From contig OZ244626.1 of the NCBI GenBank assembly GCA_965218495.1, positions 1,273,122-1,337,121 of the forward strand: a stretch of 64,000 nt of DNA, written 5' to 3'. This document shows positions 2,906 to 31,466 of this stretch, piece after piece; within the stretch, counting starts at the first letter, position 1; each line of letters starts with the position of its first letter. Below the pieces are notes generated by a model. That model made no database searches. It had not been told where the DNA came from and saw only the letters and a program-made list of their open reading frames with translations. Source of the DNA: Rhodothermales bacterium (GTDB lineage: Bacteria; Bacteroidota; Rhodothermia; Rhodothermales; Bin80). The position numbers and the translations under genes are program-made.

Positions 2906-3043
2906 GTGTGTCCTTTAAGCGAAGTGTCTGAGAGTATTGTGTAAGGCGTGCCGTATCAGTATCCAAGGTAGCGTGCGGCAACGCTGTTGTAATTTCCGAA
3001 TTCCACGCCCTGCCAGCCACCTACGACATGACGTACGCTGGCA

Positions 3044-3553
3044 TTACAACGCCGCGTGCTGCCACTGGTTCAGGCAGCGTACGATAGTATCCTCCAGCCA
3101 GACGTGGAATCGCGGCTTAACTGCGGCCACGGATTGCTTATAGTTGATCAGGAAGACTCTATCAGACAAAGGTATTGCCGATCCCATCTCCCGCTCGCGG
3201 TCGTCCGTTTCTACGCGCTGAAACCACGACACGGAGCAGGCTAGTACACCGTGCAATTCTCGTCCAATGCCGTGAAAGGCAAGCAATTCGGTTCAATTGG
3301 TGTTTCGCAGCACCAACCGCACCCAAGCGCGGTAGGAACTCGTGTTCGCATAGTAGTCCAGCGCCCGTGCAGTTTGGATGATCTGATACCGATAGAAATG
3401 GCTATGTTGGCTACGGTCGTCCGCGCCGCTAACATAGTAACTACCACTTTCAAGCAAGTCTGCCATTTCGCGCTTTAGATCGTTGACCACTTCATCCAAC
3501 TGATCTTCTGCCCGCCTATGCAGAGCTGGACCTGGCGGCCTCCCCTTCGGCAA
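3044..3553 (-). pseudogene. hypothetical ~169-codon frame downstream of fic, interrupted by one in-frame TGA
   Basis: ORFs 3293-3553 and 3044-3286 are in the same frame (both start coordinates are 1 mod 3). They are separated only by TGA at 3293-3295 plus two codons. No family was recognised. Confidence 0.3.
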
Positions 3554-3575
3554 CGAAAGAGTCCCGACGCTTTTG

Positions 3576-5461: not shown

Positions 5462-6406
5462 ATGCCCCGCCCGCTGTCAGATATGTGTAGGGCGCCCATC
5501 TTGGCGCTCGTTGGCCCAACGGCGGTCGGGAAGACGGCAATCAGCTTGAGAATCGCAGAGCGGCTCAATGCGGAAATCATCTCAGCCGACAGCCGCCAGG
5601 TCTACAAAGCGCTGACGATTGGTGTCGCCAAGCCATCTCCCCGTGAGCTTGGGCGTGTGCCCCATCACTTTGTTGGTGAACTTTGCCTCGAAGAAGGGTT
5701 CTCCGCTGGTGCATTTGCCGAAAGTGCCAACGCACGTATCAGTGGAATTGTACGTTCCGGGCGCACACCACTGATCGTCGGCGGCTCTACGCTTTACCTG
5801 CAGGCGCTGATCCACGGCCTTTCTCCCGTCCCACCGGCGGATGCGTCCACACGCATGGCGCTGGAAGCGCGGCTGAGCAGCGAAGGCAGCCTTGCTTTGT
5901 TTCAGGAATTGAAAACCATTGATCCCCAAAGCGCTGAGGCCCTTGACCCGACGAAGACCCAGCGGCTGATCCGTTCACTGGAAGTTTATTACCAAACTGG
6001 CAATACCCTCTCCTCCTACCTGGAGCGACGCACGCTTCCTCCCTACCGATACGACGTCAAAGTCCTAACCATGGACCGTGCCCGGCTCTACGAACGAATT
6101 GACAGGCGCGTAGACCGAATGCTTGAGGCTGGCCTCCTTGATGAAGTCCGCGGCCTGAAGGCACAAGGCTATGGGGCTACACTTCCGACCCTGCGGACAA
6201 TCGGCTACCAGGAAGCATTTGCCCATCTTGACGGCGAAATAGCCGAGACTGAAATGCTCCGCCTGATCAAGCGAAATACCCGCCGATACGCCAAGCGGCA
6301 ACTGACGTGGTTCAGGCGTTACGATGAGCAGCACTGGGTAGACATTGACGCCCCTAATATGACCCGTCTCGGCCGCTGGGGTGATGCCTTTAGCGGCGCA
6401 CTATAG
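5462..6406 (+). CDS. miaA: tRNA dimethylallyltransferase
   Basis: P-loop GPTAVGKT, then ISADSRQVYK..IGVAKPS and the C-terminal RRYAKRQLTWFR motif. The true start may be the internal Met at 5483. Confidence 0.93.
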   Translation: MPRPLSDMCRAPILALVGPTAVGKTAISLRIAERLNAEIISADSRQVYKALTIGVAKPSPRELGRVPHHFVGELCLEEGFSAGAFAESANARISGIVRSGRTPLIVGGSTLYLQALIHGLSPVPPADASTRMALEARLSSEGSLALFQELKTIDPQSAEALDPTKTQRLIRSLEVYYQTGNTLSSYLERRTLPPYRYDVKVLTMDRARLYERIDRRVDRMLEAGLLDEVRGLKAQGYGATLPTLRTIGYQEAFAHLDGEIAETEMLRLIKRNTRRYAKRQLTWFRRYDEQHWVDIDAPNMTRLGRWGDAFSGAL

Positions 6407-6493
6407 AGCGCATGCCGCTTCTGGGCCAGCGCACCTTGGCCGACCCGGGATCCAAGCGACTTCAGAGGCGAACTGCGACCAGACGCTGGCCCG

Positions 6494-7147
6494 CTAGAGC
6501 CTGCGAAACAGGTCTCGAAGCCTGAATTCCCACACCTTGAAGGCAGCTTCCCTGATGATGGCCTTGCTCATCTTGGACTGCCCTTCCGTGCGCTCGGTAA
6601 AGATGATTGGAATTTCCCTGAGGGTGAAGCCCTTGCGCCAGATGCGGAATTTCATCTCTATCAGAAATGAATACCCATTCGACTTTATGCGGCTGAAGTC
6701 AAGGCTCTCCAGCACGCGCCGGTGGTAACACAGAAATCCCGCCGTAACATCACGTACAGGCATACGCGTGATCACTCGGGTATAGATACCTGCAAAATAC
6801 GACAGCATCAGTCGCGACAGCGGCCAGTTGACAATTCGTACGCCGCCAATGTACCGAGACCCAATTGCCATGTCAGCCGTGCCGTCCCGGACCGGTTCCA
6901 CAAGACGCAGCAAGTCGTCCGGGTTGTGCGAGAGGTCGGCATCCATGCCACAGACGAATTCGTACTCTCCTCGCAGTGCATAGGCAAATCCTTTCAAATA
7001 GGCTGTGCCGAGTCCCAGTTTTTCCGCGCGCTCAATCATTGCAATGCGTCCGGGGTACGCTTCGGATAGCCCGTGAACAACCGCCGGTGTCCCATCCGGC
7101 GAACCGTCATCTACAACCAGCACATCCATGGCGCCCGGCTGCTGCAT
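6494..7147 (-). CDS. polyprenol-phosphate mannose synthase-like GT2 (Dpm1/Ppm1 family)
   Basis: VVDDGSPDGT...MDADLSHNPDD...GSRY motifs. The frame is open upstream to 7231 and there encodes the conserved LVIIPTYNEREN segment without any ATG/GTG/TTG (see finding). Confidence 0.85.
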   Translation of the reverse strand: MQQPGAMDVLVVDDGSPDGTPAVVHGLSEAYPGRIAMIERAEKLGLGTAYLKGFAYALRGEYEFVCGMDADLSHNPDDLLRLVEPVRDGTADMAIGSRYIGGVRIVNWPLSRLMLSYFAGIYTRVITRMPVRDVTAGFLCYHRRVLESLDFSRIKSNGYSFLIEMKFRIWRKGFTLREIPIIFTERTEGQSKMSKAIIREAAFKVWEFRLRDLFRRL

Positions 7148-7555
7148 GATCCGCTTGAGCGCGGTACCTACGTTCTCGCGCTCGTTATAGGTGGGGATAA
7201 TGACGAGAGTCCGTGAAATGAGGATAAGGGCTCAGTTCGAAAATATCCTGACACGCCTTTAACGTCCGAGCACGGGTTAGGCTCAGCATGCCAGCTCTGA
7301 TTGCCAAAGGTAGGGTGCACAGGTGACTTTTGGCTGCGCATGTGATCACCAGCCAGCCCGCGCAACGCTTTTCGCCCAGTCGAACACCGCGACGTCCCCT
7401 GCAGCGTAAAGCAGTCTTGGCCAAGGCAGTCCTGCGCAAACGCTGCGCCCTGTCGCTCACGCAATTCGGAAGCCCGCCGACCACTGGCGCCCGACAGGGA
7501 CCTTGCCGGCCTATGTGCGTACAACGCGCCCCGTGAAAGCGCCCTGCCCTCCTGT

Positions 7556-8490
7556 ATGCATCTCTCTGCCAAACGCGAAAGGATTTTCGTAACCGGACAC
7601 CGTGGGCTGTTGGTCTTGGCCGTTTTGCAAAGGCTAACGCACGACGGCTACGATATCCTTCACGTGCGAACTCGGCAAGAATTGGACTTGCACGATCAGA
7701 GCACACTGAACCGATTCTTTGATGCCGTACCCCCAGAAGACGTTGTGCTTGCCGCTGCACGGGTGGATAGCATCCTAGCGAATGACACCTATCCAACCGA
7801 CTCTATTGGGGGTAACCTGGCTATGCGAACGTGCGTCTTGCAGGCCGCGCAGAGAACAGGAGTCAAGCTCCTTCTTTTCTTGAGCAGCATGTGCGCTTAC
7901 GCGCGAGAGGCACCGCAACCACTAAAGGAGGACCATCTTTGCACATGGCCAGGAGAGCCCACCACTAGTACGCCGTGGCAAAGATCGAAGGCGCAAAGTA
8001 TTGCCAAGCAATGCGAGAGCAACAAGGACGCGATTTCTTGCTGCTGATGTCGGCGTATCTTTACGGACCGGGAGATAGTTTTGATCTGAAGGCCAGCCAC
8101 GTGCTGCCGGTGCTCTTGCGCAACGTGCAACAGGCAAAGTGCACCGGCGCACGACACTTTACGGTCTGGAGCACTGGCACGCCTCGACGCGAGTTCCTTT
8201 TCGGTAAAGACCTTGTAGGCGCTTGCCTGTTTGCTTTGCAGCAGCCCAAAGAGATGTTGTGTCAGGTTGCGCCAGATGGTCTCCTGAGCGTCGGCGTGGG
8301 ACATGATGTGGCCATTAGTGCGCTAGTCGATATTATTCAAGTTGTCGTGTGTACCATGTGCGCCGTACTGAATGATTCCTCAAAGCCTGACGGAACGCCT
8401 CGCAGACTAGTGGATGTCTCACGTAGACGCCACCTCGGATGGCGAGCGCCCGCCTCCCTGGAAGAAAGCATCAGCACAACCTTCGGCTGA
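7556..8490 (+). pseudogene. fcl: GDP-L-fucose synthase (GDP-4-keto-6-deoxymannose epimerase/reductase), frameshifted
   Basis: ORF 7556-8047 covers the N-terminal half (IFVTGHRG...NDTYP...EPT). ORF 7975-8490 in another frame covers the rest (YAVAKIEG...GTPRREFL...SKPDGTPRRLVD). The two are joined by 5 nt (ACTAG, 7964-7968) where a multiple of 3 is needed. Confidence 0.8.
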
Positions 8491-15965: not shown

Positions 15966-16930
15966 ACGGCGTTGAGGTTGATGAGAATCTCACGAAGTTG
16001 TGGCAGATAGGCCGCATGGGCCACACGGCGCAGCTGAGCCTCGTGTTCCAACAGTGCCAGTGCCATCTGTTCGCGTCGCTGGAAAACGGCGCTGGCCGGG
16101 GTCTGCAACCTGCGACTGATGGCATCCATGAAGCGCATCACGCGCAGCCCTCTGTCGAGCTTGAGCAGCATGCCCGTGCGTTGAATCGTCAGAGATTGCT
16201 CCAGGCCCTCCCACAGAACCTTCGCTGCGGACCGATTGACGCGCGTCAAGTCCTGGTGAATACGGGTGAGTGCGCGTTCAGCTTCCCGGGCATCGAACCC
16301 ATTCCATGCCTGGCGGAGGCGATTGCGATACACAGGAACAAGGTCTTCCGGAAGACCACAGGTGACTTGATCCAATAGCGTATTGAGACAGCGCTGTATA
16401 GCGACCCTGGGGCCGAACACCTGGCGCACCGCCGATTGCAGTCCCGTACTGCTGGGCAGCACACAGAGCAGCCCGTCGGCGGCCGAAAGACCACGATCGG
16501 ACAGCGACTGCACAAAGGACGTAAGAGCAGAGACGTTCTCAGGGTAGCACGCTATAAGGCCAAGTATGCGGCGATAGCCCGTGATGGTCAGACCCGCTCC
16601 AAGAACGATGTTAACGCCGCGTGGGCACAGCCCGCGCAGCCAAATCGCAACGATCGGGTCGTCTTGCAGACTGCGCGAATGCAACAGCTGCCACGCTTCA
16701 TTCAACTGCGCCGAGTCCGGCTTTGTGTCCTGGGCCGCAGCAGAAGCCTTGATCACTACGGGCGGTGGCACCGGCTGCTGATGCGCTACCGGAATGGGCC
16801 AGTCAGTGGTCAATTGTTGCAGTATGTGCGTGCAGAGCTTCATCAGAAGCCGCCGCGAGTCACCGGAGGGATTGATCTGGGCGTCTGCAGGCGCCTCAGC
16901 CCTCCCCAAAACAGGCTGTGAGGGGTTCAT
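15962..16930 (-). CDS. IS256-transposase-like paralog lacking the catalytic acidic residues
   Basis: 322 aa that align by eye to the transposase core (IWLRGLCP...LGAGLTITGYRRILGL...LCVLPSSTGLQSAVRQVFGPRVAIQRC). R/P replace the D residues, and QRCxWHKxxN is degenerate. The stop overlaps the transposase ATG (ATGA at 15962-15965). Confidence 0.75.
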   Translation of the reverse strand: MNPSQPVLGRAEAPADAQINPSGDSRRLLMKLCTHILQQLTTDWPIPVAHQQPVPPPVVIKASAAAQDTKPDSAQLNEAWQLLHSRSLQDDPIVAIWLRGLCPRGVNIVLGAGLTITGYRRILGLIACYPENVSALTSFVQSLSDRGLSAADGLLCVLPSSTGLQSAVRQVFGPRVAIQRCLNTLLDQVTCGLPEDLVPVYRNRLRQAWNGFDAREAERALTRIHQDLTRVNRSAAKVLWEGLEQSLTIQRTGMLLKLDRGLRVMRFMDAISRRLQTPASAVFQRREQMALALLEHEAQLRRVAHAAYLPQLREILINLNAV

Positions 16931-17011
16931 ATGGTTGGAAAGGAATGGTGGAGACTAGGGTCCACCTCCACAGCAACTCTCCAATTCCCAACTTGAATTT
17001 GTGCGATCCCG

Positions 17012-17265
17012 CCGGAACTGCTGGCTACCGTCCCCAATAAGGTCTGGTCCTAGGACATCACCAAGCTGCGCGGACCGCAGAAGTGGAGCAGCTATAAGCT
17101 GCTCGTAATGCTGGATATCTACAGCCGATACGTAGTGGGCTGGATGGTAGCACCCGGGGAATCCGGCGGTCTGGCAGCAGAATTCATCGCCGCCACGTGC
17201 GAGCGCCAGGGCATTCGTCCGCAGCAACTCACGATTCATTCCGACCGTGGCCCTGCCATGATATC
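17012..17265 (+). pseudogene. IS3-family orfB, middle (rve integrase core) fragment
   Basis: PELLATVPNKVWS*DITKLRGPQKWSSYKLLVMLDIYSRYVVGWMV...LTIHSDRGPAMIS. An in-frame TAG at 17051-17053 sits where W is expected. The fragment is cut at 17265/17266 by IS1380 copy A. Confidence 0.8.
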
Positions 17266-17361
17266 TAACCCGGATAAATCACCCGGGTGCGAAGAATTGG
17301 AACCCAAGCCCCACGTAAGTGTATGATTAATAATCATTTATAACCATCCTGTGCACTGCGC

Positions 17362-17724
17362 GTGAACAACACAGACTGTCATACTGAAGAGCTTCGTTTC
17401 GAGGACTTGGGGCGGCGTAAAGTGGTCGGAAAGTTCGACGGCGGCCCTATGTCCTCGGACGCAGGTGTTCTCTTGTTGCGGGAGGCCGACCGGATGTTCG
17501 ACGTCATAGGCCGTTTTGCCGCCTGCTTCACCGACCACCGTGATCCCAGCAGGGTCGAGCATACCGTGGAGGCGATGCTCAGGCAACGTGTCTACGCGAT
17601 ATGCTTGGGCTACGAAGACGTGAACGACCATGACCGTCTGCGGGACGATCCCGTGTTGGCCATGGGCGTGGGCTGCGAAGATGTAATAGGTGCGCACCGG
17701 GCACGGGAGCGCGACCAGGGACAT
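17362..17724 (+). CDS. IS1380 family transposase, exon 1 (121 codons)
   Basis: FDGGPMSSDAGVLLLREADRMFDVIGRFAACFTDHRDPSRVEHTVEAMLRQRVYAICLGYEDVNDHDRLRDDPVLAMGVG is the hallmark IS1380 N-terminus. The frame ends at the codon boundary before GTGTG. Confidence 0.8.
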
Positions 17725-18409
17725 GTGTGCCACGTAGTGGCGCGAAAGTGATGTTCTTTAACATAGCTTGAGTGTTGCGTAACTGCATTGAGGATGGAGG
17801 TAGGTCCTCCGCAGCCGCTGTGCAGGCGGAGGCTGCAAACCACCCACTGCTGCTGGGCTTTAAGGGTCTGGTGGTGAGCGAGCTGGGAAAAGGCGGAGCT
17901 ATGACTCTGTCAGGTGTGGATCGTAGAGTCGAACGCAAGTGAACCGCTGACTAAGTGTCGAAAGGTCTTAGACGATGTCAAAACCGGGGTTTATGTCCTG
18001 CTCCGGGACGAGGTCGGGGGCGACCTGCTTATTGCCCGATCGGCATCCGGCATGGAGGCGGCGAGAATGCGATCTGGGCCTCAATGCGGAACGTGGGAAC
18101 CTGTCGGGGCGATGCAAAGGGAGTGTCACAAGTGGAAGTCCCACAAGTGATTGAGTACCAATGCGCCCCACGGGGGCGGATCGGCTTGTAGTAGCGATGA
18201 AACGGGGTAATGCCCGTGGAGCGAAGAGGCCGACTCGGCTGGCTGACTGGATGAGGCAACCGCGTTGCGGGAGGACCTCACCTGCGAAGCAAGGGCTTGG
18301 TCGTTGGCTGGTCCAACGGCGGAGTGGGCCGAGAAGAGCCGTATGAGGCGAGAGTCTCACGTACGGTTCCGTGAGGGCCTGGGGGTGAAATTCCCCCGGG
18401 CTACTCGAC
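17725..18409 (+). mobile_element. ORF-less group II intron (intron Y, 685 nt)
   Basis: 5' GTGTG; domain V GAGCCGTATGAGGCGAGAGTCTCACGTACGGTTC at 18336-18369; domain-VI-like hairpin GGGCCTGGGGGTGAAATTCCCCCGGGCTACTCGAC with an unpaired A 7 nt from the end. No RT ORF, and the flanking exons join in frame. Confidence 0.8.
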
Positions 18410-19501
18410 CCGCTGGCGGGTTCGAGCACACTGAACCGACTGGAGCTCGGCTCCAAAGGAGGGGCCGCATCGCATAGGTACAAGCGCATCGTAGCGGACC
18501 CTGAAAAGATCGACACCATGCTCGCGGACTTGTTCATGGATGTAACGGGCGAGGAGCCAGAGCATATCGTGTTGGATCTCGATGCTACCGATGACGCGAT
18601 TCACGGCCAGCAGGAGGGGCGCTTCTTTCATGGTTACTATGGCCACTACTGCTACTTACCGCTGTACATCGTTAGCGGAAAGCATGTGTTGACCTCTCGT
18701 TTGCGCCCCTCCAACGTGGACGCATCAAAGGGTGCCATAGAGGAGTTAGCGCCGGTGGTAGCGCGTATCCGTGCGAGGTGGCGGCCGCACGTGCCGATCT
18801 GGGTTCGTGGAGACGCAGGCTTTTGCCGCGATGATATCATGGCATGGTGCGAAGCACAGGGCCTGCACTATATCTTTGGTATGGCTCGCAATGCGCGACT
18901 GAAACGCATCGTTGAGGAGGCTATGGAGCAGAGTCAGGCCACCTGCGAGGCCAGCGGGCAGCCTTCGCGGCGCTTCCGCAGCTTCGAGTACCAGACGAAG
19001 GACAGCTGGAGCTGTGCTCGGCGCGTGATAGCCAAGGCGGAATGGCTGCCTGGACCGCGCGGCTATAACGCGCGATTCGTGGTCACCAATTTCAGCGAAG
19101 ACGCGTACGACGCGCGCACGCTATACGAAGATTTGTATTGCGCGCGTGGAGACATGGAGAACCGGCTCAAGGAGCAGCAGCTTACCCTGTTCGCTGACCG
19201 CACCTCTACGTCCATGATGGAGAGCAACCAGTTGCGCCTGTACTTCTCTACGGTCGCCAACACCCTGATGACCATCATCAAGACCTTTGGCTTGCAGGGC
19301 ACCGCGATGGCGCAGGCGCAGTGCGCTACTATCCGTGTGCGGCTACTGAAGATCGCAGCACTGGTGGTGGTAAGCGTACGCCGAGTCCGCCTGCTCTTGC
19401 CCGAGGCCTATCCCTGGCAGCAACTGTTCGCGCGCGTGCTAAGCAACCTGCGCGGCGCTGTGCACACCACCCAGGTCGGCGCGCGCGCCTCACCTTCATA
19501 G
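18410..19501 (+). CDS. IS1380 family transposase, exon 2 (363 codons + stop)
   Basis: PLAGSSTLNRLELGSKGGAASHRYKRIVADPEKIDTMLADLF...IVLDLDATDDAIHGQQEGRFFHGYYGHYCYLPLYI...RLRPSNVDASKG...VRGDAGF. The frame is open from 18410, the same frame as ORF 18518-19501. Confidence 0.85.
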   Translation, partial: PLAGSSTLNRLELGSKGGAASHRYKRIVADPEKIDTMLADLFMDVTGEEPEHIVLDLDATDDAIHGQQEGRFFHGYYGHYCYLPLYIVSGKHVLTSRLRPSNVDASKGAIEELAPVVARIRARWRPHVPIWVRGDAGFCRDDIMAWCEAQGLHYIFGMARNARLKRIVEEAMEQSQATCEASGQPSRRFRSFEYQTKDSWSCARRVIAKAEWLPGPRGYNARFVVTNFSEDAYDARTLYEDLYCARGDMENRLKEQQLTLFADRTSTSMMESNQLRLYFSTVANTLMTIIKTFGLQGTAMAQAQCATIRVRLLKIAALVVVSVRRVRLLLPEAYPWQQLFARVLSNLRGAVHTTQVGARASPS

Positions 19502-19529
19502 GCACTTCCGGACCCGACTTACTCCACAG

Positions 19530-20180
19530 ATTAACGGTACCACATGGTGGTTGCTGGATACGTGTATCCAAGAAGCACCGGTGCGCGAACAAAAGCCTTG
19601 ATTCCCGCTCGAAACATGCCCGAAACAGCGCTTGCTGCCGCCGACTATTCGCTCTGGAAGGCGGGAATCAGCATTCGCATTCCCAGATCGTGACCCATTG
19701 GCTACAGACGCCTCGAATTATGGCGATTCAAGAGCTTGGTGAGCGATGCGGGTTAAGGCTCACCTGCTCGTCCCGAAGACTCAGATAGTGTTGAACGGCG
19801 TCCTTGAAGATCACCCGATGATCGTCCTCCGCATGGTAGACGCGCTTCAGCTCACCCAGTCGCAACAAGCGACACAAGTTGTAGACATCTTCCTGATCAC
19901 TCTTGCGTGCGCTCTTGCTGATCAGGGCGTTCTGGCGCGGATCACACATGGTGAGCTCGTCCACGTATGCCCGCAGCAGTCCCGCCAGCCACGTGGCCAG
20001 CGTGGACTCCTCGAACACCAGAAGCTTTTCTTTTGTCTTCACGGCTACAATCTGGCTGATCAGGTTGCCTTCGGTCAGTGGAAACTTCTCCCGTAACACC
20101 AACTAGCCACGCGTATCCATGCCTCCGAGGACATAGTGGCTGGCGTGGGCGTCCAGGCCAAGGTAAATCCGATTCTGCAT
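19530..20180 (-). pseudogene. IS110-family (DEDD) transposase remnant
   Basis: MQNRIYLGLDAHASHYVLGGMDTRG*LVLREKFP...LLVFEESTLATWLAGLL...CDPRQNALISKSARKSDQEDVYNL resembles an IS110 N-terminal domain. There is an in-frame TAG at 20103-20105 and later frame breaks. The 3' end is cut by the IS1380-A terminus. Confidence 0.6.
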
Positions 20181-20284
20181 TGGGGGCCTCCCTGCGGTTT
20201 AGGTAACGAATAACGGACCACTACGTTTCGAAGCACGTGTCCGCTTTTTACATTACCTGTGGAGTAAGTCGGGTCTGGAAGTGC

Positions 20285-21305: not shown

Positions 21306-21553
21306 TACCTAGTGATTGCCCGAAAAAGGCCTATTGGGAGCAATATGCGGGCAGATTGTGGATGGGCGGTAAGCCTGTAGTCGCGGTCAGGGGTGTGCGC
21401 AAGGCGCGCAGCCCCCGAATATGAGTGGATTCGGCACAAATCCGTGGCCTTCAGCCAGCTTTTCATGCCATTGCACTACAAAGAGGATATAGGTTTGCGC
21501 TCTCCCCATTGCAAGGAGTCTGGCTTGCTCCCGTGACGGCGCTTGGTAGGGCC

Positions 21554-22036
21554 TTACTGCGCCCTACTGCGTGCCTGGTGCCACTTTCGTCGGCGCGCTT
21601 CCTTCTGCTTCAGAACCTGACCTATGCGGTGCACATTGGTGGCCACCACTACCAGTGCCAGCGTCCTGTCGAAGCCGGTCTTGCCATGGGTGCGCACTAG
21701 TGCCATCCCCCGGTGATGGAGGTTATTGATCGCCGACTCTACGGCCGGGTGTTGACGCCGGGCTGCCACGAAGTCCGGATGGGTCTCCCGTTCGCGGTCC
21801 GCTTCACGGAGCCGCCCCTTTCGGGGCATCACGTTTAGGTCCAACAACTTGTCAAGCTGCTCGCGATTCTCTGGCGTGTAAAACCCCTTGTCCATACTGC
21901 ATGATGCCAGCGCCGGGTAGCGCCGCTTCGCCTCTGCAAGGAACGGCACGATCATGTCCTGGTCGCCACCTTCGTGTTGCACGTAGTGGCGCAGAATGAA
22001 TTGGTGCTGATCCTCCAGCACGCACACCGGTACCCC
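21554..22036 (-). CDS. ISNCY-like transposase, exon 2 (160 codons + stop)
   Basis: GVPVCVLEDQHQFILRHYVQHEGGDQDMIVPFLAEAKRRYPALASCSMDKGFYTPENREQL...HPAVESAINNLHHRGMALV is the C-terminal DDE part. The N-terminal 207 codons of ORF 21554-22657 are intron read-through. Confidence 0.8.
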   Translation of the reverse strand, partial: GVPVCVLEDQHQFILRHYVQHEGGDQDMIVPFLAEAKRRYPALASCSMDKGFYTPENREQLDKLLDLNVMPRKGRLREADRERETHPDFVAARRQHPAVESAINNLHHRGMALVRTHGKTGFDRTLALVVVATNVHRIGQVLKQKEARRRKWHQARSRAQ

Positions 22037-22704
22037 ATCCCGGTAGCCCCCAGGTTTCCCCGGGGGCCCCGGACAGATCCGGACGTGCGCGCTAACGCAT
22101 CCGGCTCCTCCCTTGGGTCGCGCTGCCGCGCATGACGTTAGCAGGTCGGCAAGCCGACCCGCAGCCGTAACCGATTCATCCCTGGGACGCGCAAAATCCG
22201 GCACTGAGTCCGGTACGTGTGGGACTGCACGATTTCCCCTTGGGTGCGACGCTTCGCTCCACTGACTCCGCCACGAGGGCACCCCCGCTTTGTTCGTCGG
22301 CTTCACAGCTACGTATCGTCGCATCTGACTTCTCCTTGCCGTACGTCCTCCGCTCGGCTTTCGCCTTGGCTTTGGCGGCCCCGCCCGTAGCGCTGGGCAA
22401 CAAGAAGATCTCCCAGGTCCCAGCAGGATATGTACATGCGTCCATGGGGTCCCGGACACCGTGGGCCTGTCCGCCGTCTCACCATAACGATGACGGACAT
22501 GTTGCCTTCGACCGAGCTGAAAGCCTCGGCGACCCAGATTACATGTTTTTCGGTGCTCAATAACCCTGGCCACACGCACCGCTACCGACGCTTCGCGCCC
22601 ACCCTCACGGGTGGCCACGCACGGCTCGCGGAGATATGTACCTGGTTTCAGTTTCATAACACGGGACTTTCACCCGCTATATCCTGCCAGTTAGCCTGGC
22701 GCAC
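22037..22704 (-). mobile_element. ORF-less group II intron (intron X, 668 nt)
   Basis: On the minus strand: 5' GTGCGCCAGGCTAACTGGCAGG...; domain V-like GAGCCGGATGCGTTAGCGCGCACGTCCGGATC (22076-22107); domain-VI-like CCGGGGCCCCCGGGGAAACCTGGGGGCTACCGGGAT ending ...AT. No RT ORF, and the exons join in frame. Confidence 0.75.
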
Positions 22705-23646
22705 CAACTCTGCCATCACGCCCGCCTTCCCTTTGTCGATCCAGCGCGTGTGGGGCTCATGCACGGAGAAGAGCTTCTGGCCGTGCGGAATCTTCTCGCC
22801 CTTGATCAAACGGCGCGACACCTGGTCTATCAGCTGCTCTCCAGTCCGCAAATACCACGACACCTCCGCGCTTTCAACATCGTTTTGCCTCAATATCGCC
22901 TGCGTGGCCGCTGCCTTCGACACGATAGTGCGGCAAAGTGCCAGGTAGTTTGCCACTTTCGACGTACTACGCCACTGCCGGGAAGTGCGCACGCGATAAA
23001 AGGCGCGCTCCATTTTCTTGATCCAGGCCTGCGACTTGCGCCAGCCCGCTATCGCATGCTGTTGGCAAAGACGCGCCAGCTTCCTGATCAGACGGCGCAG
23101 CGCATCCCACAGCAAACGGACATCGGTGGGCCACTCCACATGGGTCTTCGCAACCGCTGAGTCGGCCCGGCAGTGAAGCGGATCCGATGACCTGTGCTTC
23201 AACAGCTGATGCCCACGGGCCACCACCACCGCATTGATCTGCCGCAGCGCTTCCTCGGTAAGCAGACGCACGTTGTCAATAACGGTCTGCAGGCGATACT
23301 GGTGCTTATCTCCAAAATCTGCATGCCCCAGCATCTGGCGCAACGCCGTGTGAAAGTTCGCCAATTCCACCAGACGGTCGAAGTCGCAGTCGAGCGCCTT
23401 CTGCAGCGTGCCCAGCACGAAGATCCGCCACAGGCACAGGCCCGGGCGACCACGCCGCAAATTGACCTTCGCGCCTAACTGCTCCCGCAGAATCGCGAAC
23501 ACCCGCTCGCGGGTCTCGCGGTGCGTGAAGATGTCCTGCAGTCCACGCAGTACGGCCGGAATATCGTCTCTGGACCGAGCGTCAAAGCTGATCTCTCCAA
23601 TGGGCGTGTGCCCAAGCTCAAACTGTGGCTCGAAGATCGCGCGCAT
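22705..23646 (-). CDS. ISNCY-like transposase, exon 1 (314 codons)
   Basis: MRAIFEPQFELGHTPIGEISFDARSRDDIPAVLRGLQDIF...RADSAVAKTHVEWPTDVRLLWDA...FSVHEPHTRWIDKGKAGVMAEL. The last codon TTG ends at 22705, directly before GTGCG. Confidence 0.8.
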
Positions 23647-23888
23647 GGCAGTAAATCGGGCGAATGTTGGGGCAGAAGCGTACTAATCACGCCAATAACG
23701 GTACTAAGATCGGAAAACGGCGCAACATTCGCTAAAACAATGCAGGCAGCCGTTGGGGAAACTGCCCCGAAAACAGCCGCTCGACACTCCAAAATGCCCG
23801 ATTTTCCGCCGCACGCGCCCGTACATCCGCCCTATGCGCCCAAGACTGCCGGTCTGCAGAGCCGATCAGGCATTTTTCGGGCAAGCAC

Positions 23889-23986
23889 TACCTATGCGAT
23901 GCGGCCCCTCCTTTGGAGCCGAGCTCCAGTCGGTTCAGTGTGCTCGAACCCGCCAGCGGGTCGAGTAGCCCGGGGGAATTTCACCC
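23889..23986 (-). other. IS1380-B exon 2 proximal 71 nt plus the last 27 nt of intron Y
   Basis: The reverse complement is identical to copy A 18383-18480 (GGGTGAAATTCCCCCGGGCTACTCGAC|CCGCTGGCGGG...CGCATAGGTA). It is bounded by the IS4-like element on one side and the ISNCY-like element on the other. Confidence 0.8.
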
Positions 23987-25487
23987 ATAAGCGCTAACTT
24001 GTTTAAATACTGGGGAAATAGCGTTCAACTTGGTTAATTCTAGCTCTTGGAGGCGCAGCCAACATTCCCGAGATTTCGGGCCATTGCTCGATCATCTCGG
24101 CCAAGGAGAACCCTGGCTCAATCGCCTGCCCGACTTGGTTGAGGGCGAATTTGAATTCCCTCCATGTACTGGGTGTGCGCCCGCACATCATAGCCCCAGG
24201 GGGAAAGTGTCCGTGCGTGACGGACGATCTTTTCGGTCAACAGCGCGACCAGTAACTTCCCGTATAGCCAAGCTTTCGCGCTCTCGTCATCGAATTTCGG
24301 CAGGTGGCCCAGCTGGGCTAACGATTTGAAACGCTTAAACACCAGTTCAACCTGCCAGCGTAGTCGGTACCACTCGAGCACAGCGGTCGCTGAAAACTTC
24401 TCCGTTGGGAAGGTGGTGAATAAGATGACGTACCGGGCGTAACGCAAGGTTTCTTCCCGTGGCTTCTTTCCCTTCCGCTGAGCAGTCTGATAAATCTTGG
24501 TATGCGCCTCTTCCATCGCTTCATCCGTTTTACGAAGCGCACAGATACGGCCCTTCACGGGGGTCTCTGCCTTGACGGCTGCGGTCCAGACTCCCACAGC
24601 CCCAGCCTGCAGTAAGGACTCCACCGACGCTAACAGGTCAATGGGCTGGCCGGATTCCGTCTCAAAGCGCAGCGCACCTGTGTTCACGCGCACCGTCACG
24701 TAGCCGCCGGCTGTCTCCACATGTTGAATTCCAGAACCGGTCGCATAGCCGCGGTCCGCCAGTATGTAGTCACCCGCACGGACGGGAAATTGCTTGAATG
24801 ATTCACCCGTGCCCGCCCCCTTCGTTCCAGTTAACTTGAAAAAATCACAGCCTAGTGAAGGCAGGGTAACACTGTAATGCAACCGCCACATTGATCCCGT
24901 GCGGCCAGGCTCCCGTACTACGGTAGCATCGAACGCCCGTACTTGCAGCCCCTCGCTGGCAGATACCTCAATGCCATGCTCCTTAAATAGCTCCATGCAT
25001 AATGCGTAGAGCCAGTTCCGTGACTTCTGCAGCCGCTTGAGCAGGGCTACGTCCGATAAGTCGGCCAGATGAGCCTGGCGCGCTCGCACGACGGTCTCCC
25101 GCAGTGAGTGCCCGCATCTCCAAGTGGATCAGCAGCGTCCGCAAGAGGTTTTCCGGTGACTTATCCTTACGCAGCCCGCGCAGTGCGCCGGTATTCACGG
25201 CCAGTTGCTGCCAATTCGCAGGCAAGAACGACGCCAACACGCCCCAGTCCTTGTCAGCTGGCGCTCTGGTAACGGTTCCCTTCATCAGGCGTCAATCGTT
25301 TAGCGACGAAGTAGCGACATATTTATCCCGATCATGGGTGCACAGGATGGTAGATGGCCCGACCTTTGTGATTCCCAGTGCACGAAATTGTCTACTGCAA
25401 GCGGCATCGGTGTTCCCGGTTACCTCGACTCCAGGTAAACCAAAGCAACATACAGGAATCGTGTCAGATAAACAAGTTAGCGCTTAT
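23987..25487 (-). mobile_element. IS4-family insertion sequence (~1.5 kb)
   Basis: Perfect terminal inverted repeats of about 19-21 bp ((CC)ATAAGCGCTAACTTGTTTA at 23985/23987 and its reverse complement ending 25487/25489). One transposase gene. Confidence 0.85.
24118..25285 (-). pseudogene. IS4 family transposase, one frameshift near 25090-25125
   Basis: ORF 24983-25285 (MKGTVTRAP...LLRTLLIHL) continues in another frame as ...GHSLRETVVRARQAHLADLSDVALLKRL... (24118-25089). DDE context DATVV / LADRGY and the signature YRLRWQVELVFKRFK (Y-2-R-3-E-6-K). Confidence 0.8.
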
Positions 25488-25488
25488 G

Positions 25489-25812
25489 GCGGTACGCCCC
25501 CGGCTGGCCCGCCTTGGGAATACGGTGCGCGCGGACCGGCTGGGGCGTGTAGGTGCCGTCTTTGAGCTCCTGATGCATACGCTCCAGGTTCGCTTCAAGC
25601 GATGCCTCGAACGTCGCCAGGGTCTCTCCGTCCACACCGCCCGCCCCCCGTCCTTGCTTCACCTTCTTCCAGGCCAACTCCAGATTCTTCCGCTTGTACA
25701 CCTTGTCCACTAACGAGTGGACCTTCCGCTCACCTGTTGGATTGAGCCAATGTGACAGTCTCCTGGGCCGATGATGTACGGGTCTTTCACTAAAGGAACT
25801 GTTCCACCTCAT
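25489..25812 (-). pseudogene. group II intron reverse transcriptase/maturase, N-terminal fragment only
   Basis: SLVDKVYKRKNLELAWKKVKQGRGAGGVDGETLATFEASLEANLERMHQELKDGTYTPQPVRAHRIPKAGQPGAYR (RT domains 0-2), then runs into the IS4 terminal repeat (..HKR*). The start codon is uncertain. Confidence 0.75.
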
Positions 25813-25926
25813 CGACTTTACTCGCTGATCGCAATCTCTCCATTCCAAACCACCTTTGCCGACTGCCTTCCCCGACCCACCCGGCCGCCGCTTGCGCGGT
25901 CACCCGACTTTCGACGGGCTTGTGGT
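25767..25926. repeat. 160-bp direct repeat, copy 1 (inside intron Z)
   Basis: Identical by eye to 26135-26294 (offset 368 bp). Lower-identity homology continues ~55 bp further down (25712-25766 vs 26080-26134). Confidence 0.85.
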
Positions 25927-26134
25927 GTCGGGTCGGAGGAGGCGCCCCGAAGGGCTAACCTCCGTCCGCCGCTCAAACGGCTCGTACGGTTTTCCCGTAA
26001 GCCGCTTTCACAAAGGTGTCTCGTGGAGGGTTCAAGGAAGGTTTCAGTGGAATCAATCGTACATGGCCGTACTCCACTGTGGTGTAGACCTTCCTCTCCC
26101 CTGTTGGATTGTGCCCAATGCGACAGTCTCCTCA

Positions 26135-26294
26135 GCCGATGATGTACGGGTCTTTCACTAAAGGAACTGTTCCACCTCATCGACTTTACTCGCTGATCGC
26201 AATCTCTCCATTCCAAACCACCTTTGCCGACTGCCTTCCCCGACCCACCCGGCCGCCGCTTGCGCGGTCACCCGACTTTCGACGGGCTTGTGGT
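26135..26294. repeat. 160-bp direct repeat, copy 2 (inside intron Z)
   Basis: See 25767-25926. This repeat explains the duplicated ORF prefixes MEWRDCDQRVKSMRWNSSFSERPVHH in ORFs 25477-25848 and 25818-26216. Confidence 0.85.
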
Positions 26295-26804
26295 ACTATG
26301 CAGTCGTCCGACGACTCGCCACGCATCCGTTCCCACTTCCCCTTACGGGTTATAGGGGCTGTTATCCCGGTGCCACCCGGGAACGTGACGAGCCCTCCTG
26401 GGGTCACTGCCAGATCTTCCGTACCGTGCCGTTCGCACACACCTTGGTACGACGGGTGGATAAGAACGCCTTCGCCGCCATAGTGCCGGCTCGACCTTGC
26501 CCCGTCTTTGGCCGACCGATTCGTCCGTGGGGTCGCCCCCTTGACTACGGCCCGGTACTGCTCCGCAAGCCCTTCAGATTCCACCTCGCGGTGGACACCC
26601 TGCCCTCCGGTTGTCTCGCGACAATGTCCCGACTTAGCGCCTGTCTTGGCTGTTTCCGTCGTTTCCAACTCGGTGCCCGTTTAGACCTTTGCTTATCGGT
26701 ACATCCCGGCCGACGAGGCATTACCCCCGTCTTTGGATATGGCACCCCCTATCCGGGCGCCAGTGGGACTTGAACCCACCTGATCTGGGCGCTGCCCAGC
26801 ACAC

Positions 26805-27272
26805 ACTACAAGCCGATCCGCCCCCGTGGGGCGCATTGGTACTCAATCACTTGTGGGACTTCCACTTGTGACACTCCCTTTGCATCGCCCCGACAGGTTC
26901 CCACGTTCCGCATTGAGGCCCAGATCGCATTCTCGCCGCCTCCATGCCGGATGCCGATCGGGCAATAAGCAGGTCGCCCCCGACCTCGTCCCGGAGCAGG
27001 ACATAAACCCCGGTTTTGACATCGTCTAAGACCTTTCGACACTTAATCAGCGGTTCACTTGCGTTCGACTCTACGATCCACACCTGACAGAGTCATAGCT
27101 CCGCCTTTTCCCAGCTCGCTCACCACCAGACCCTTAAAGCCCAGCAGCAGTGGGTGGTTTGCAGCCTCCGCCTGCACAGCGGCTGCGGAGGACCTACCTC
27201 CATCCTCAATGCAGTTACGCAACACTCAAGCTATGTTAAAGAACATCACTTTCGCGCCACTACGTGGCACAC
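26805..27272 (-). mobile_element. intron Y, 5' 468 nt (copy in IS1380-B)
   Basis: The reverse complement is colinear with 17725-18192 with no indels. One substitution is inferred from the T/I difference between the shadow ORFs 17914-18150 and 26847-27083. Confidence 0.85.
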
Positions 27273-28265: not shown

Positions 28266-31200
28266 ATGAAAGGACTCAGACTGACCGCTATCGCCGTAGT
28301 GGCGATCATGTTTTTACCGCTTGCCATCACGCTATTGCCGGACGCTCCGACTCCCGATTCGGTGTCAGATCCTCTGGCATTCCGATCCGAGAAGTCCCGA
28401 ATGGTGTCAAGCCCGCAGGGCCACCCGAACCTGTTTTTCGAGTATTTCAGAGACATCAGGGCATCGGAAGACGGTGAAGTCGAGTACCCGCCGGGCTATC
28501 GGTATACTGAGTATAAGAAGGCAATGGCAACTGCGAAGACTTCTGGAGGCACGCTCAACTGGGTGGAGCGAGGCCCTGGCAACGTTGGCGGACGAACGCG
28601 TCCTCTACTAGTCGATCCGGATGATCCAGACTTGCACACGTGGTGGGCTGGTTCCGTGGCCGGCGGCCTGTGGAAGACCATTAACGGAGGGTTGGCATGG
28701 CAGTACCAAACGGATGACCTGCCAGTCATGTCGGTCACCAGCCTGGCGATGGCGGAGAGTAATCACGACGTCATCTACATGGGCACCGGTGAAGGCTATG
28801 GCAATATTGACGGCGTAGATGGTAATGGAATCTTTAGGTCCACTGACAGAGGAGTGACTTGGGAGCACTTGGCCGCTACCACCGCGAACGCTGATTTCCG
28901 ACATGTAAACCGGTTGGCCGTTGATTCTGCGAATCCGGATGTGGTAGTGGCCGCTACCGGTGCAGGCATATTTCGCACCACCGATGGAGGCATGTCCTGG
29001 ACCGAAGTATACGAGGGGCCGGGGCGCGTGCAGGACTTGCGCGCACAGCCGGGCAACTTCAGTATGCAGATAGCTGGTGTAGACGGTAATGGAATACTCT
29101 ACTCCACAGACGCTGGCATGACGTGGGAATTCTCCTCCGTAGTCTGGACTAGCGGCTTAGGTCGCATTGAACTAGCATATTCAACGTCCCATCCCAGTAT
29201 CGCGTATGCTGCCGTCGACGGAAGCACCGCTGCACTCTATCGAAGTAGCGATGGTGGCGTAAATTGGGCACCGACCGTAGATTCATCCCCCTTCCCCTTT
29301 TCTTGGCTCGGGTTCCAAGGCTGGTACGATAACACGCTGGCGGTGCATCCATTTAAGCCTGACACGGTGTTTGTTGGAGGAATATTTTTGTGGCGAAACA
29401 TTCTATCCGGGGAAACCATAACCGTGTCTGGACCTTCCGAATTCAGCTACGGTGGCGCTGAGTCGTGGCTTAATTTCGTTAACTTTGGTGCGTCTGCTTT
29501 TGGCGGCACCCTGTCTTACCTGGATCTAGATGCCATTGATGTGTCAGAGGCGGACTACAACAACATTGAGATCCGATTTGGTCAAGGAATGCAGAAGGCG
29601 CACCGCTTCTGGGTTTCCGAAACCGCTGGCACATTCGGAAATGGCGGCTCAGGCATCCCGTTCAGCGAGTTCATGTACGCGGACTACGTTGACGTTCCAT
29701 TGCAAGTGTGGGATATCGATAACAACCGTCAGCTGAATTTCTCCTTCCGCGATCAAGCCGACGATGGCGAATTCAACCTGATTGAATTCTTCTCGTCAGA
29801 GGATCCGGGCACGCGCGATACGCAGAGTCGCGAGTACATGTTCATTCACAAATCTGATTACGACGCAACTAATCCACAGGACAGCATCGCCCAAGATGGC
29901 GGCCTGGTGCATGGAATGCTGTACTTCATGTGGCCTACGCTTCTTGACTCCACTGCCACATGGGACCCGATGAACCTGCCTAACCAGACCCTTTCAATTT
30001 CGTATAGCGTTACCGAAGGCCTTGGTCGAACACTAGACGGTGAAATCGATCCTAACAGCAACACGCACGTGGATCACCACAATATATTGCCAATCCCAAT
30101 TAACGCTGCACAAAATGAGTTCTGGATCTTAAATGCCAACGACGGTGGCGTAGCAGTGTCTACGGACGGCGGCCAGTCTTTCAGAGAAGCGGATAACGCA
30201 TTTGCGGGCTACAACACCGCGCAATTCTACGGAGTGGCGAAAAAGCCCGGTAGCCCCATTTACATCGCCGGATCGCAGGATAACGGAACATGGCGGTCTT
30301 TCGGCAATCCAAATAACAGGCGTGGGTGGATATTTGCGCTTGGCGGCGACGGTTTTGAGACGATATGGCACGCTACTGATCCAGACAGGATTATGGGATC
30401 GATTCAATTCAATAATATTTTGCGAACTGTCAACGGTGGCGTCAGCTGGCAGTCCACAGCGGCGGGTGGGCTCGGAGCCGGGCAGTTTATTACCACACTT
30501 GCTAGCTCCGATATGGCACCCAACAATGTATACACTAGCAATGCCAATGGCGTGGCGTATTCCAGAGATTTTGGAGCGACCTGGACCTTGACCTCAATCA
30601 CTGAAAGCTGGGGGTTTTGGTCAGGTGGCAAAGTTAGGGTATCTATTGCGGACTCGAACGTGGTTTGGGCAGGATATGGCTTGGACTCCAGCCCCAACCG
30701 TAAGCTGCACATCTCGAGGGATCAAGGGGTGTCGTTCGAAGCGGTGGCCTTGCCTACCATGAATCGGGCGCCCGAGACGATTATTTCCGGGCTGGCTACG
30801 CATCCTACCGAGAGCGGCACTGCGTATGCGCTGTTCTCACGCTACGGCTACGCAAGGGTCCTGGAAACAAAGGATTACGGGCAGACGTGGACTGATCTTT
30901 CAAGCTTTGATACGACGGGAGCAAGCACGAATGGCTTTCCTGATGTGGCCGTTCACGACCTGCTGGTGATGCCGCATGCAACGAATGTGTTGTGGGCAGG
31001 CACTGACATTGGCCTTTTCAAGTCTAAGAGCTACGGCAAGGAGTGGAACTACGCGCACAACGGCCTGCCGGCAGTCTCCGTTTGGCGAATGAAGTTTCGC
31101 GATGATGAGGTCATCCTAGGTACGCATGGCCGTGGCGTATGGACCGTGCCGGCTAGCGAGATTGACGTCGCAATAGAGGAGGAGTCGGCGGAGTTGCCGT

Positions 31201-31466
31201 CTGGATTCAGCCTCGCTCCGAACTATCCGAATCCCTTTAACGCCTCCACCACCATCCAATTCAAGGTGCCGAGCGAAGCACGAGTACGACTGACTGTCTT
31301 TGATGCAATCGGACGGAAGGTGTCCGTGCTGACCGACAGGGTTTACCCTCCTGGAGAGTACGACTTGAACTGGAACGCCAACGACTTCGCGAGCGGTGTC
31401 TACTTCTATCGCATGGAATCAGAAGGCAAGCTCATCCACACGCACAAGATGACACTGGTGAAGTAG
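28266..31466 (+). CDS. secreted Asp-box/BNR-repeat (sortilin/VPS10-like beta-propeller) protein with T9SS C-terminal sorting domain
   Basis: 1066 aa with a signal-like N-terminus. Repeated SxDxGxTW-type boxes (STDRGVTWE, TTDGGMSWT, STDAGMTWE, SSDGGVNWA, STDGGQSF, SRDFGATWT, TKDYGQTWT). The C-terminus NYPNPFNASTTIQFKVP...VYFYRMESEGKLIHTHKMTLVK matches the Por/T9SS CTD pattern. Confidence 0.85.
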   Translation: MKGLRLTAIAVVAIMFLPLAITLLPDAPTPDSVSDPLAFRSEKSRMVSSPQGHPNLFFEYFRDIRASEDGEVEYPPGYRYTEYKKAMATAKTSGGTLNWVERGPGNVGGRTRPLLVDPDDPDLHTWWAGSVAGGLWKTINGGLAWQYQTDDLPVMSVTSLAMAESNHDVIYMGTGEGYGNIDGVDGNGIFRSTDRGVTWEHLAATTANADFRHVNRLAVDSANPDVVVAATGAGIFRTTDGGMSWTEVYEGPGRVQDLRAQPGNFSMQIAGVDGNGILYSTDAGMTWEFSSVVWTSGLGRIELAYSTSHPSIAYAAVDGSTAALYRSSDGGVNWAPTVDSSPFPFSWLGFQGWYDNTLAVHPFKPDTVFVGGIFLWRNILSGETITVSGPSEFSYGGAESWLNFVNFGASAFGGTLSYLDLDAIDVSEADYNNIEIRFGQGMQKAHRFWVSETAGTFGNGGSGIPFSEFMYADYVDVPLQVWDIDNNRQLNFSFRDQADDGEFNLIEFFSSEDPGTRDTQSREYMFIHKSDYDATNPQDSIAQDGGLVHGMLYFMWPTLLDSTATWDPMNLPNQTLSISYSVTEGLGRTLDGEIDPNSNTHVDHHNILPIPINAAQNEFWILNANDGGVAVSTDGGQSFREADNAFAGYNTAQFYGVAKKPGSPIYIAGSQDNGTWRSFGNPNNRRGWIFALGGDGFETIWHATDPDRIMGSIQFNNILRTVNGGVSWQSTAAGGLGAGQFITTLASSDMAPNNVYTSNANGVAYSRDFGATWTLTSITESWGFWSGGKVRVSIADSNVVWAGYGLDSSPNRKLHISRDQGVSFEAVALPTMNRAPETIISGLATHPTESGTAYALFSRYGYARVLETKDYGQTWTDLSSFDTTGASTNGFPDVAVHDLLVMPHATNVLWAGTDIGLFKSKSYGKEWNYAHNGLPAVSVWRMKFRDDEVILGTHGRGVWTVPASEIDVAIEEESAELPSGFSLAPNYPNPFNASTTIQFKVPSEARVRLTVFDAIGRKVSVLTDRVYPPGEYDLNWNANDFASGVYFYRMESEGKLIHTHKMTLVK

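Follow-up and report, generated by a model that had tools for sequence, protein, structure and literature searches.

An interrupted transposase gene in an IS1380-family element

The stretch of DNA considered here, the window, comprises 64,000 nucleotides of contig OZ244626.1 from a Rhodothermales bacterium (positions 1,273,122 to 1,337,121 of the forward strand) and carries an insertion sequence (IS) of the IS1380 family, copy A, whose transposase gene is split by 685 nt of group II intron. A reading of the letters alone (the sequence-only reading) had proposed that an intron without an open reading frame (ORF) divides this gene at a codon boundary, and the proposal is borne out by Rfam matches, by a homologous empty site and by the 484-aa spliced product; the features that it named, namely the 5' GTGTG, domain V at 18336-18369 and an adenosine 7 nt from the end, all lie where it had placed them. 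Coordinates are collected in Table 1.

When the two exons are joined, they encode 484 aa in phase 0, with the junction ...RERDQGH|PLAGSSTLNRLE..., and this product matches PF13701 in one stretch (positions 4-431 of 435, 480.7 bits) as well as NF033539, the NCBIfam model of the IS1380 family (positions 3-418 of 419, 374.7 bits; cut-off 180). A single-stretch match to NF033539 is obtained only with the spliced product. Neither exon contains stops or frameshifts, and both are 96% identical to an intact copy. Because an in-frame stop at 17749-17751 ends the read-through of exon 1 nine codons into the intron (ORF 17362-17751), a full-length transposase from copy A needs splicing, as had been claimed from the outset.

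The intact copy provides the empty site. It encodes an uninterrupted 483-aa homologue (P0001, in a cluster of 74 member sequences) that is 96% identical over 100% of the query, reads ...RERDQGHPLASSSTLNRLE... at the junction and lies on European Nucleotide Archive (ENA) contig ERZ25067264:ctg831742 (L001). Window positions 17265-17724 align with 5904-6363 of that contig and 18410-19697 with its positions 6364-7649, the two blocks being adjacent there, and the letters at the insertion site, gcgaccagggacat|ccgctggcg, are the same in both. Since L001 is contiguous over 17724|18410, the insertion is exactly 17725-18409 and has no target duplication, as expected for retrohoming; judged by this alignment, a reading of the interval as ordinary coding sequence is already excluded. 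The protein search also returned many further uninterrupted homologues at 56-66% identity, all of them continuous over the junction, and the spliced protein is collinear with P0001-P0044. For annotation this means that the two transposase "fragments" are one gene and that the 685 nt between them are not intergenic DNA. The sample of the intact copy, ERZ25067264, contains in addition a 9.5-kb contig (L113) that matches the window, so that the IS is present there in intact as well as in interrupted form. Neither the exon 1 read-through ORF nor the exon 2 ORF gave a record when its exact protein was looked up, and other intron-bearing copies are therefore not traceable in that way. Two homologues considered as further split copies, P0004 (92% identity) and P0101, were rejected as frameshifted or truncated genes without an intron.

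The intron itself starts with GUGUG (17725-17729) and ends with ...GGGCTACTCGAC (…CUCGAC) at 18409, which fits the GUGYG/AY pattern. An Rfam scan of the whole window at gathering thresholds places a full-model match to RF01999 (group-II-D1D4-2) at 17796-17915 (104 bits, E 2e-20) and one to RF00029, the model of domains V and VI, at 18334-18409 (63.5 bits, gathering score 40; model positions 1-77), the latter reaching exactly to the 3' end of the intron. A z-score of -5.2 was obtained for the minimum-free-energy fold, and in this fold as in the consensus fold of relatives A18403, 7 nt from the 3' end, is unpaired in the final hairpin; the corresponding alignment column is invariant in 10 relatives. 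ORFs inside the interval have neither a Pfam match nor similarity to a reverse transcriptase (RT). The covariance models, the six-domain fold with its unpaired A18403 and the alignment of the spliced protein to uninterrupted transposases are the checks that had been suggested together with the original claim, and all three came out in its favour.

Table 1. Features of the window and their coordinates (position 1 is its first letter; D, domain; EBS and IBS, exon- and intron-binding site)
Feature	Position	Strand	Remarks
IS1380-family insertion sequence, copy A	17266-19755	+	About 1.8 kb without the intron; collinear with uninterrupted L001 5904-7708
Imperfect terminal inverted repeats of copy A			TAACCCGGATAAATCACC and GGTGAGCGATGCGGGTTA; 13/18 match in alignment
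Transposase exon 1	17362-17724	+	GTG start, 121 codons, ends ...CAG GGA CAT
Transposase exon 2	18410-19501	+	363 codons plus stop; bears the DDE domain
ORF-less group II intron, RmInt1-type (class D / IIB3-like) ribozyme	17725-18409	+	685 nt; Rfam, empty site, covariation
Domain I	17730-18096	+	Consensus structure mapped to the window; contains the RF01999 match
Domain II	18097-18177	+	Consensus structure
Domain III	18181-18233	+	Consensus structure
Domain IV	18234-18333	+	About 100 nt, no ORF; by comparison with L111, L053, L090
D4a hairpin in domain IV	18257-18275	+	CAACCGCGUUGCGGGAGGA; kept
Domain V	18335-18370	+	Core 18336-18369 GAGCCGTATGAGGCGAGAGTCTCACGTACGGTTC, AGC triad, 2-nt CG bulge; RF00029
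Domain VI	18372-18407	+	Bulged branch-point candidate A18403
IBS2 candidate GACC	17713-17716	+	Exon positions -12 to -9; pairs with GGUC of the EBS2 loop
IBS1 GGACAU	17719-17724	+	6/6 Watson-Crick with EBS1; seventh pair G-U at 17718
EBS2 loop candidate	17960-17970	+	GAAAGGUCUUA; GGUC:GACC pairing
EBS1 AUGUCC	17993-17998	+	Same alignment columns pair in relatives
EBS3 G	18055	+	Pairs with IBS3 C18410
IS3-type integrase fragment	17108-17265	+	Abuts left end of copy A
IS110-type transposase fragment	19756-20256	-	Fills gap between right ends of the IS1380 copies; cuts right end of copy B
Copy B exon 1	27635-27273	-	In inverted IS1380 copy
Copy B intron, nt 1-468	26805-27272	-	In inverted IS1380 copy
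Third intron type	25480-26804	-	GTGTGC at 26804, after nt 468 of copy B intron (D3); twintron-like
IS4-family element	23999-25492	-	Terminal inverted repeats ATAAGCGCTAACTTGTTTA; cuts RT ORF of nested intron
Copy B intron, 3'-terminal 39 nt (3' half of D6)	23960-23998	-	Followed by start of exon 2, 23959-23889
ISNCY element in copy B exon 2	21312-23888	-	Flanked by TAGGTA direct repeat
ISNCY transposase exons	23646-22705 and 22036-21554	-	Around the 668-nt intron
Second, unrelated ORF-less group II intron of another class	22037-22704	-	668 nt, 5' GTGCG; splits ISNCY-family transposase

Ribozyme class, relatives and exon recognition

The RF01999 model is also matched in full (113.7 bits) by a 1884-nt intron on a Sinorhizobium meliloti plasmid (L112, positions 1940-3823), which is present in nine copies on that plasmid and encodes a 419-aa ltrA product. 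Its length, product and copy number fit RmInt1, for which the size and class of the intron-encoded protein (IEP) are described in PMC4615759 and PMC3035460. RT-bearing relatives of the window intron, L111 and L053, match the full model as well. The nearest of them, L111, encodes an RT of 414 aa that lacks an endonuclease (En) domain and is 53.6% identical to the IEP of the plasmid intron. The L111 protein ends in ...LRRVRARFPGLFAHW (…PGLFAHW), which is the class D motif except at one position (R for A); class D IEPs are characterised by the C-terminal motif LX3AX3PXLF[V/A]HW and lack DNA-binding and endonuclease (D/En) domains (PMC4615759). On these comparisons the RNA of the window intron belongs to the RmInt1-type structural class, that is, bacterial class D or IIB3.

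What the window intron lacks is the coding part. The RT-bearing relatives contain a CAACC-loop-GGGAGGA hairpin with a Shine-Dalgarno-like sequence directly before the RT start codon, and this D4a hairpin lies in the region to which the IEP binds in related RT-encoding introns. The window intron has the hairpin and then some 60 nt to domain V. On OY760427.1, a further chromosome from the Rhodothermales, the ORF-less copies (L015 type) are the RT form L111 of that genome with its ORF cleanly deleted; what is missing lies between about codon 7 and the five final codons of the RT. Because D4a is kept, only about 60 nt separate it from domain V and the RT form in OY760427.1 has undergone such a deletion, the window intron is, to judge by its architecture, a natural delta-ORF derivative of a class-D-type intron.

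Relatives were collected by an exact-match scan with the domain V 34-mer over a collection that holds one genome per species and does not include the window's own genome. This 34-mer is common to many unrelated introns, and the 108 genome blocks found were therefore sorted by BLAST; none of them is identical to the window intron. The closest family consists of ORF-less copies, some 685 nt long and 82-83% identical, on OZ244148.1, the chromosome of a Rhodothermales metagenome-assembled genome (MAG) (L035, L050, L055, L064, L076, L087, L092, L095, L096), followed by ORF-less copies of about 670 nt (~71% identity) on OY760427.1, which also carries the RT-containing L111, L061 and L041. Other lineages contribute RT-containing relatives together with the ORF-less L005, L025, L033, L067, L094 and L104. 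The latter six share the ribozyme class but come from MAGs of unrelated lineages (Anoxymicrobiaceae, a betaproteobacterium, Methylococcales and Polarisedimenticolaceae), and all still have D4a and the first 5-6 RT codons or so; ORF-less relatives in distant phyla may go back to a single old ORF deletion or to repeated similar ones. JGI metagenome contigs were scanned twice, with a lineage-specific 26-mer around EBS1 and with a family-invariant 22-mer, and gave no matches. A separate observation concerns a 9850-nt contig (ENA ERZ25069412:ctg820682_0x_c; L119/L120), in which RT-encoding class-D-type intron copies stand head to tail, repeating every 1876 nt. They are about 96% alike and follow each other without exon sequence, ...GGGCGACTCGAC leading directly into GCGTGACACGC...; the contig name indicates 0x coverage, and the array may be an artefact of unpolished reads or a tandem or circular multimer.

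An RNAalifold consensus of ten ORF-less members contains 189 pairs in six domains, and compensatory changes are found in 97 of them. On this consensus 96.7% of the alignment cells pair, as compared with 82.1% after column shuffling (none of 500 shuffles reaches the observed value), and sliding the partners by 1-3 columns leaves 36-44% of cells paired and 17-29 compensatory pairs. All pairs of domain V are kept in this test. The window copy breaks seven pairs, within a family range of 1-13. The structure is thus not due to chance, since compensatory changes in the relatives preserve it.

Exon recognition could be followed in the same alignment. Among 13 relatives, the EBS1 columns pair on average at 5.08 of 6 positions with the intron's own 5' exon and at 2.28 of 6 with non-cognate exons, and the pairs themselves differ from one intron to the next (for instance CACCUU/AAGGUG, UAGCCU/AGGCUA and UAGUCC/GGACUA). 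When every column was checked for pairing with the first 3'-exon base, that of G18055 was the sole variable column with Watson-Crick pairing in 11 of 11 introns (G-C, C-G or U-A); an EBS3-IBS3 pair of this kind is typical of IIB introns. The EBS1 and EBS3 pairings mean that the window intron is matched to the site 17724|18410. For EBS2-IBS2 the family signal is modest (4.85 bp with the own exon vs 3.58 bp with non-cognate exons). Two stretches at 18296-18312 that complement IBS2 exactly (TGGTCG, CTGGTC) do not qualify as EBS2, because both fall within domain IV and neither is conserved in relatives. Taken together, the pairings show that the family has repeatedly been retargeted.

Target genes and the surroundings of copy A

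The family copies on OZ244148.1 occupy several kinds of site. One (L035) interrupts an IS630-type transposase, five (L050, L055, L064, L087, L095) interrupt an ISNCY-type transposase at one and the same site, and another (L092, 3978-4662) lies within the RT ORF of the third intron type described below. Copies are also nested in each other (L095 5115-7241, L087 4175-6737), one sitting in the domain VI loop and one in domain I of its host. The EBS1 and EBS2 sequences of L064 and L096 do not fit their own exons, which suggests that copies have recombined with each other or moved as DNA. The chromosome holds 11 blocks that match the domain V 34-mer, at least nine of them with ORF-less family copies; a class-D-type RT was not found in these 11 blocks, in which the only RTs are of 29-35% identity. 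The abundance of ORF-less copies and their preference for transposase genes in these Rhodothermales genomes are mildly unusual.

Within the window, a second IS1380 element, copy B, lies inverted at 27731-20257. It is 100% complementary to 17266-18192 over 927 nt, which comprise the left end of the IS, exon 1 and intron nt 1-468, and the independent contig L113 carries the same 468 nt of its intron. Its 3' part is 95% complementary to 18371-18480, and domains IV and V of its intron are lost, having been removed by a deletion that adjoins the IS4-family element. The intron nested in its domain III, the third intron type of this region, has a weak match to RF02001 (24.8 bits), a domain-V-like hairpin near 26010-25975 and a direct repeat of 180 nt (25747-25926 and 26115-26294) that suggests partial tandem duplication; it carries an N-terminal RT fragment (TIGR04416 positions 2-62) cut by the IS4-family element. 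The transposase of the latter occupies 24121-25089, and 24986-25285 may encode a frameshifted N-terminal portion of it.

The ISNCY element in exon 2 of copy B is bordered by a 6-bp target duplication, TAGGTA, which corresponds to positions 18475-18480 of copy A. Its own transposase gene is split by another ORF-less group II intron, which matches RF02005 (group-II-D1D4-6) with 161 bits and has domains V and VI at 34.5 bits, below the threshold. The spliced ISNCY product of 474 aa matches NF033593 over positions 1-444 of 444 (409 bits), either half alone remaining below the cut-off, and the related ISNCY element of L055 is uninterrupted at this site. To judge by these remains, of the IS1380 copies in this region only copy A could still be expressed. 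A clear target duplication was not found around it, and its flanks are mismatched.

Two further observations concern the window at large. A direct repeat of 206 nt with 99% identity occurs at 2-207 and 16806-17011, 16.8 kb apart, and is probably the end of another repeated element. At 28266-31466 (+) a secreted protein of 1066 aa is encoded, with BNR/sortilin-like repeats and a C-terminal Por_Secre_tail domain of the type IX secretion system (T9SS), which fits a host of the Bacteroidota/Rhodothermota type.

Interpretation and comparison with known systems

We conclude that 17725-18409 is very probably a structurally intact, ORF-less class-D-type intron that arrived in the IS1380 transposase gene by retrohoming. 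It would have entered by reverse splicing into DNA, guided by pairing of EBS1, EBS2 and EBS3 with IBS1, IBS2 and IBS3, and subsequent reverse transcription. In the transposase pre-mRNA the intron would fold and A18403 would attack the 5' splice site at 17724|17725; ligation of the exons at 18409|18410 would then restore the 484-aa transposase, and unspliced RNA would yield only an N-terminal fragment of 129 aa. The reaction would need an RT/maturase that acts in trans and comes from an RT-encoding relative at another locus of the genome, and this same protein probably mobilised the copy A intron and, if splicing occurs, splices it. Such help in trans is plausible because D4a is retained and because precedents exist (PMC2882425, PMC4424553). 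RT-encoding relatives are present in related Rhodothermales genomes, and the usual bacterial pattern is that of an ORF-less intron with a related RT-encoding intron in the same genome (PMC4424553).

Several observations weigh against this conclusion. A tblastn search with the L111 RT found no intact RT in the 64-kb window, an absence limited to this part of a contig of more than 1 Mb; its only match was a 40-aa fragment at 25507-25626 that belongs to another intron. Among the relatives compared, a cognate RT-encoding partner with more than 90% RNA identity was not found, the nearest RT-bearing introns being 71-75% identical to the window intron in domains I-III. A protein search with the L111 RT found RTs of that type to be very common; two of them, P0126 and P0122, from samples of the same project, were rejected as partners, as their introns are about 75% identical in these domains. 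In the ribozyme, the closing pair at the base of domain V is A-C in the window copy vs A-U in most relatives, and its EBS2-IBS2 pairing is weak at 4 bp. The flanks of copy A come from unrelated elements (the IS3-type and IS110-type fragments), so that the locus has been rearranged, and the neighbourhood is a graveyard of broken and rearranged mobile elements. Restoration of the transposase may also be negligible, since in the case of RmInt1 in ISRm2011-2 less than 1% of exons are ligated (PMC4238363, PMC3035460).

Some of these points would also fit an intron that came by retrohoming and has since lost splicing, either because its partner RT is gone or through subtle damage to the ribozyme, which would make copy A an inactive pseudogene on its way to decay, a state that copy B has already reached. 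The absence of an RT from the window and of a class-D-type RT from the 11 blocks of OZ244148.1, the lack of a cognate RT, the misfit of EBS and exons in L064 and L096, the rearranged locus and the state of copy B, with domains IV and V lost and three further insertions, argue for such a relic. It remains rather doubtful in our view, given that the six domains are all intact and preserve 182 of the 189 consensus pairs, that EBS1 and EBS3 fit the site perfectly, that the transposase exons are open and close to the intact copy, and that the absence of an RT is not established by 64 kb of a contig of this size. It is also conceivable that the intron spreads mainly as DNA inside transposing IS copies, with transposase made from spliced mRNA or provided in trans by intact copies, and that RNA-level retrohoming is secondary. 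That two oppositely oriented IS1380 copies, identical over 927 nt, carry the same intron at one site would agree with this, as would the five ISNCY copies of OZ244148.1 with a family member at one site (where the EBS of L064 do not fit) and the intact IS1380 copy in the same sample. Repeated retrohoming into a homing site predicts identical sites just as well, however, and the covariation of EBS1 and EBS3 with different sites shows RNA-guided insertion; the transposition history of copy A itself is unreadable, as it has no clear target duplication and mismatched flanks. We hold spread chiefly as DNA to be clearly unlikely.

The sequence-only reading had gone further and suggested that splicing puts the mobility of the IS under control. 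This claim appears weaker than it was stated, because the near-identical uninterrupted IS of L001 could supply transposase in trans, and the junction at a codon boundary is not extra evidence for regulation, because splicing removes any group II insertion precisely. That splicing efficiency, set by the supply of maturase in trans, has been domesticated to tune transposase and limit the spread of IS1380 is very unlikely: copy A does depend on splicing for its full-length transposase, and the same idea has been argued experimentally for RmInt1 in ISRm2011-2 (PMC4238363), but we see no sign of selection for the arrangement, uninterrupted copies exist (the 74-member cluster of P0001), copy B shows the arrangement decaying, and the family inserts into many unrelated mobile-element genes as opportunistic retroelements would. 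An artefact of the long-read metagenome assembly or a chimera of joined repeats, which the repeat-packed region and the flanks of copy A from different elements could bring to mind, is hardly credible in view of the exon 1-intron junction being found twice in the window and again on the 9.5-kb contig L113, of boundaries that agree to the base with the ribozyme ends and the empty site, and of the same architecture in relatives from two finished MAG chromosomes.

The retrohomed and structurally intact intron is thus the reading that we retain, and its likeliest meaning is the behaviour of a retroelement for which the IS is a harmless landing site and which lowers or blocks the transposase output of copy A; a purpose-built regulatory switch is less likely. 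RmInt1 has been read by its authors in a similar manner, as a retroelement that limits or silences its host IS (PMC4238363, PMC3035460). We may also speculate about a wider Rhodothermales guild of ORF-less class-D-type introns, residing almost entirely in transposase genes (IS1380, ISNCY, IS630) and in other introns, and persisting without a cognate RT by riding on IS transposition or through mobilisation by a non-cognate RT. Taken as a whole this is decidedly improbable, its hints being the 11 blocks of OZ244148.1 without a class-D RT, the two unrelated ORF-less introns that split different transposase genes within 64 kb, and at least one family copy whose EBS do not fit its site; if true, intron splicing and DNA transposition would be mutually coupled.

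Among known systems, RmInt1 of S. meliloti (class D, IIB3) is the closest. The two introns share the GUGUG 5' end and comparable RF01999 scores, and an En-less RT similar to the RmInt1 IEP is encoded by the closest RT-bearing relatives of the window intron. Both reside in a transposase gene in which in-frame stops make splicing necessary for the transposase (PMC4238363), that of ISRm2011-2 in the case of RmInt1; Sr.md.I1, a relative of RmInt1, lies in an IS66-type transposase ORF. The window intron and RmInt1 differ in that the window intron has no ORF (685 nt vs 1884 nt) and in that its host is an IS1380-family element of a Rhodothermales bacterium. In size it resembles the engineered RmInt1-deltaORF of 0.74 kb, which is used with the IEP in trans (PMC3035460).

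The TeI3 introns of Thermosynechococcus elongatus (Mohr et al. 2010, PMC2882425) likewise form a multi-copy ORF-less family that arose by ORF deletion in domain IV, with diverged EBS families and good EBS/IBS matches, with twintrons and insertion into intron ORFs, and with ORF-less copies outnumbering the RT-encoding ones. They are CL/IIB1 introns with En-containing IEPs, unlike the class D-like window intron, and are mostly intergenic, PMC2882425 mentioning no transposase targets, whereas sites of the window family are mostly transposase genes; in addition, mobilisation in trans by TeI4 "driver" IEPs has been shown experimentally there and would apply to the window intron by analogy. In Methanosarcina, ORF-less and RT-encoding introns are nested and home into introns and intron RT ORFs (Dai and Zimmerly 2003; summary in PMC4424553), for which L092, L095 and L087 and the third intron inside the copy B intron are the counterparts here. 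The archaeal introns have flanking exons without coding ORFs, and the outermost host in the window is a transposase gene. IStrons, which combine a group I intron with an IS200/IS605-type transposon (PMC4227781), are also a partnership of ribozyme and IS in which splicing eases insertion damage, but the ribozyme is of group I, the IS is carried by the intron (the opposite nesting) and mobility is DNA-based.

Altogether, ORF-less group II introns, described as rare in bacteria (PMC4424553), trans-acting IEPs, twintrons and introns in IS transposase genes each have a published precedent, and even the idea that splicing controls IS mobility has already been put forward for RmInt1 in ISRm2011-2 (PMC4238363). 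The locus therefore adds no new mechanism, both the intron-in-IS arrangement, known from other bacteria, and trans-mobilised ORF-less introns being established; it offers a clean case of a naturally ORF-less intron of the RmInt1 class in a transposase gene.

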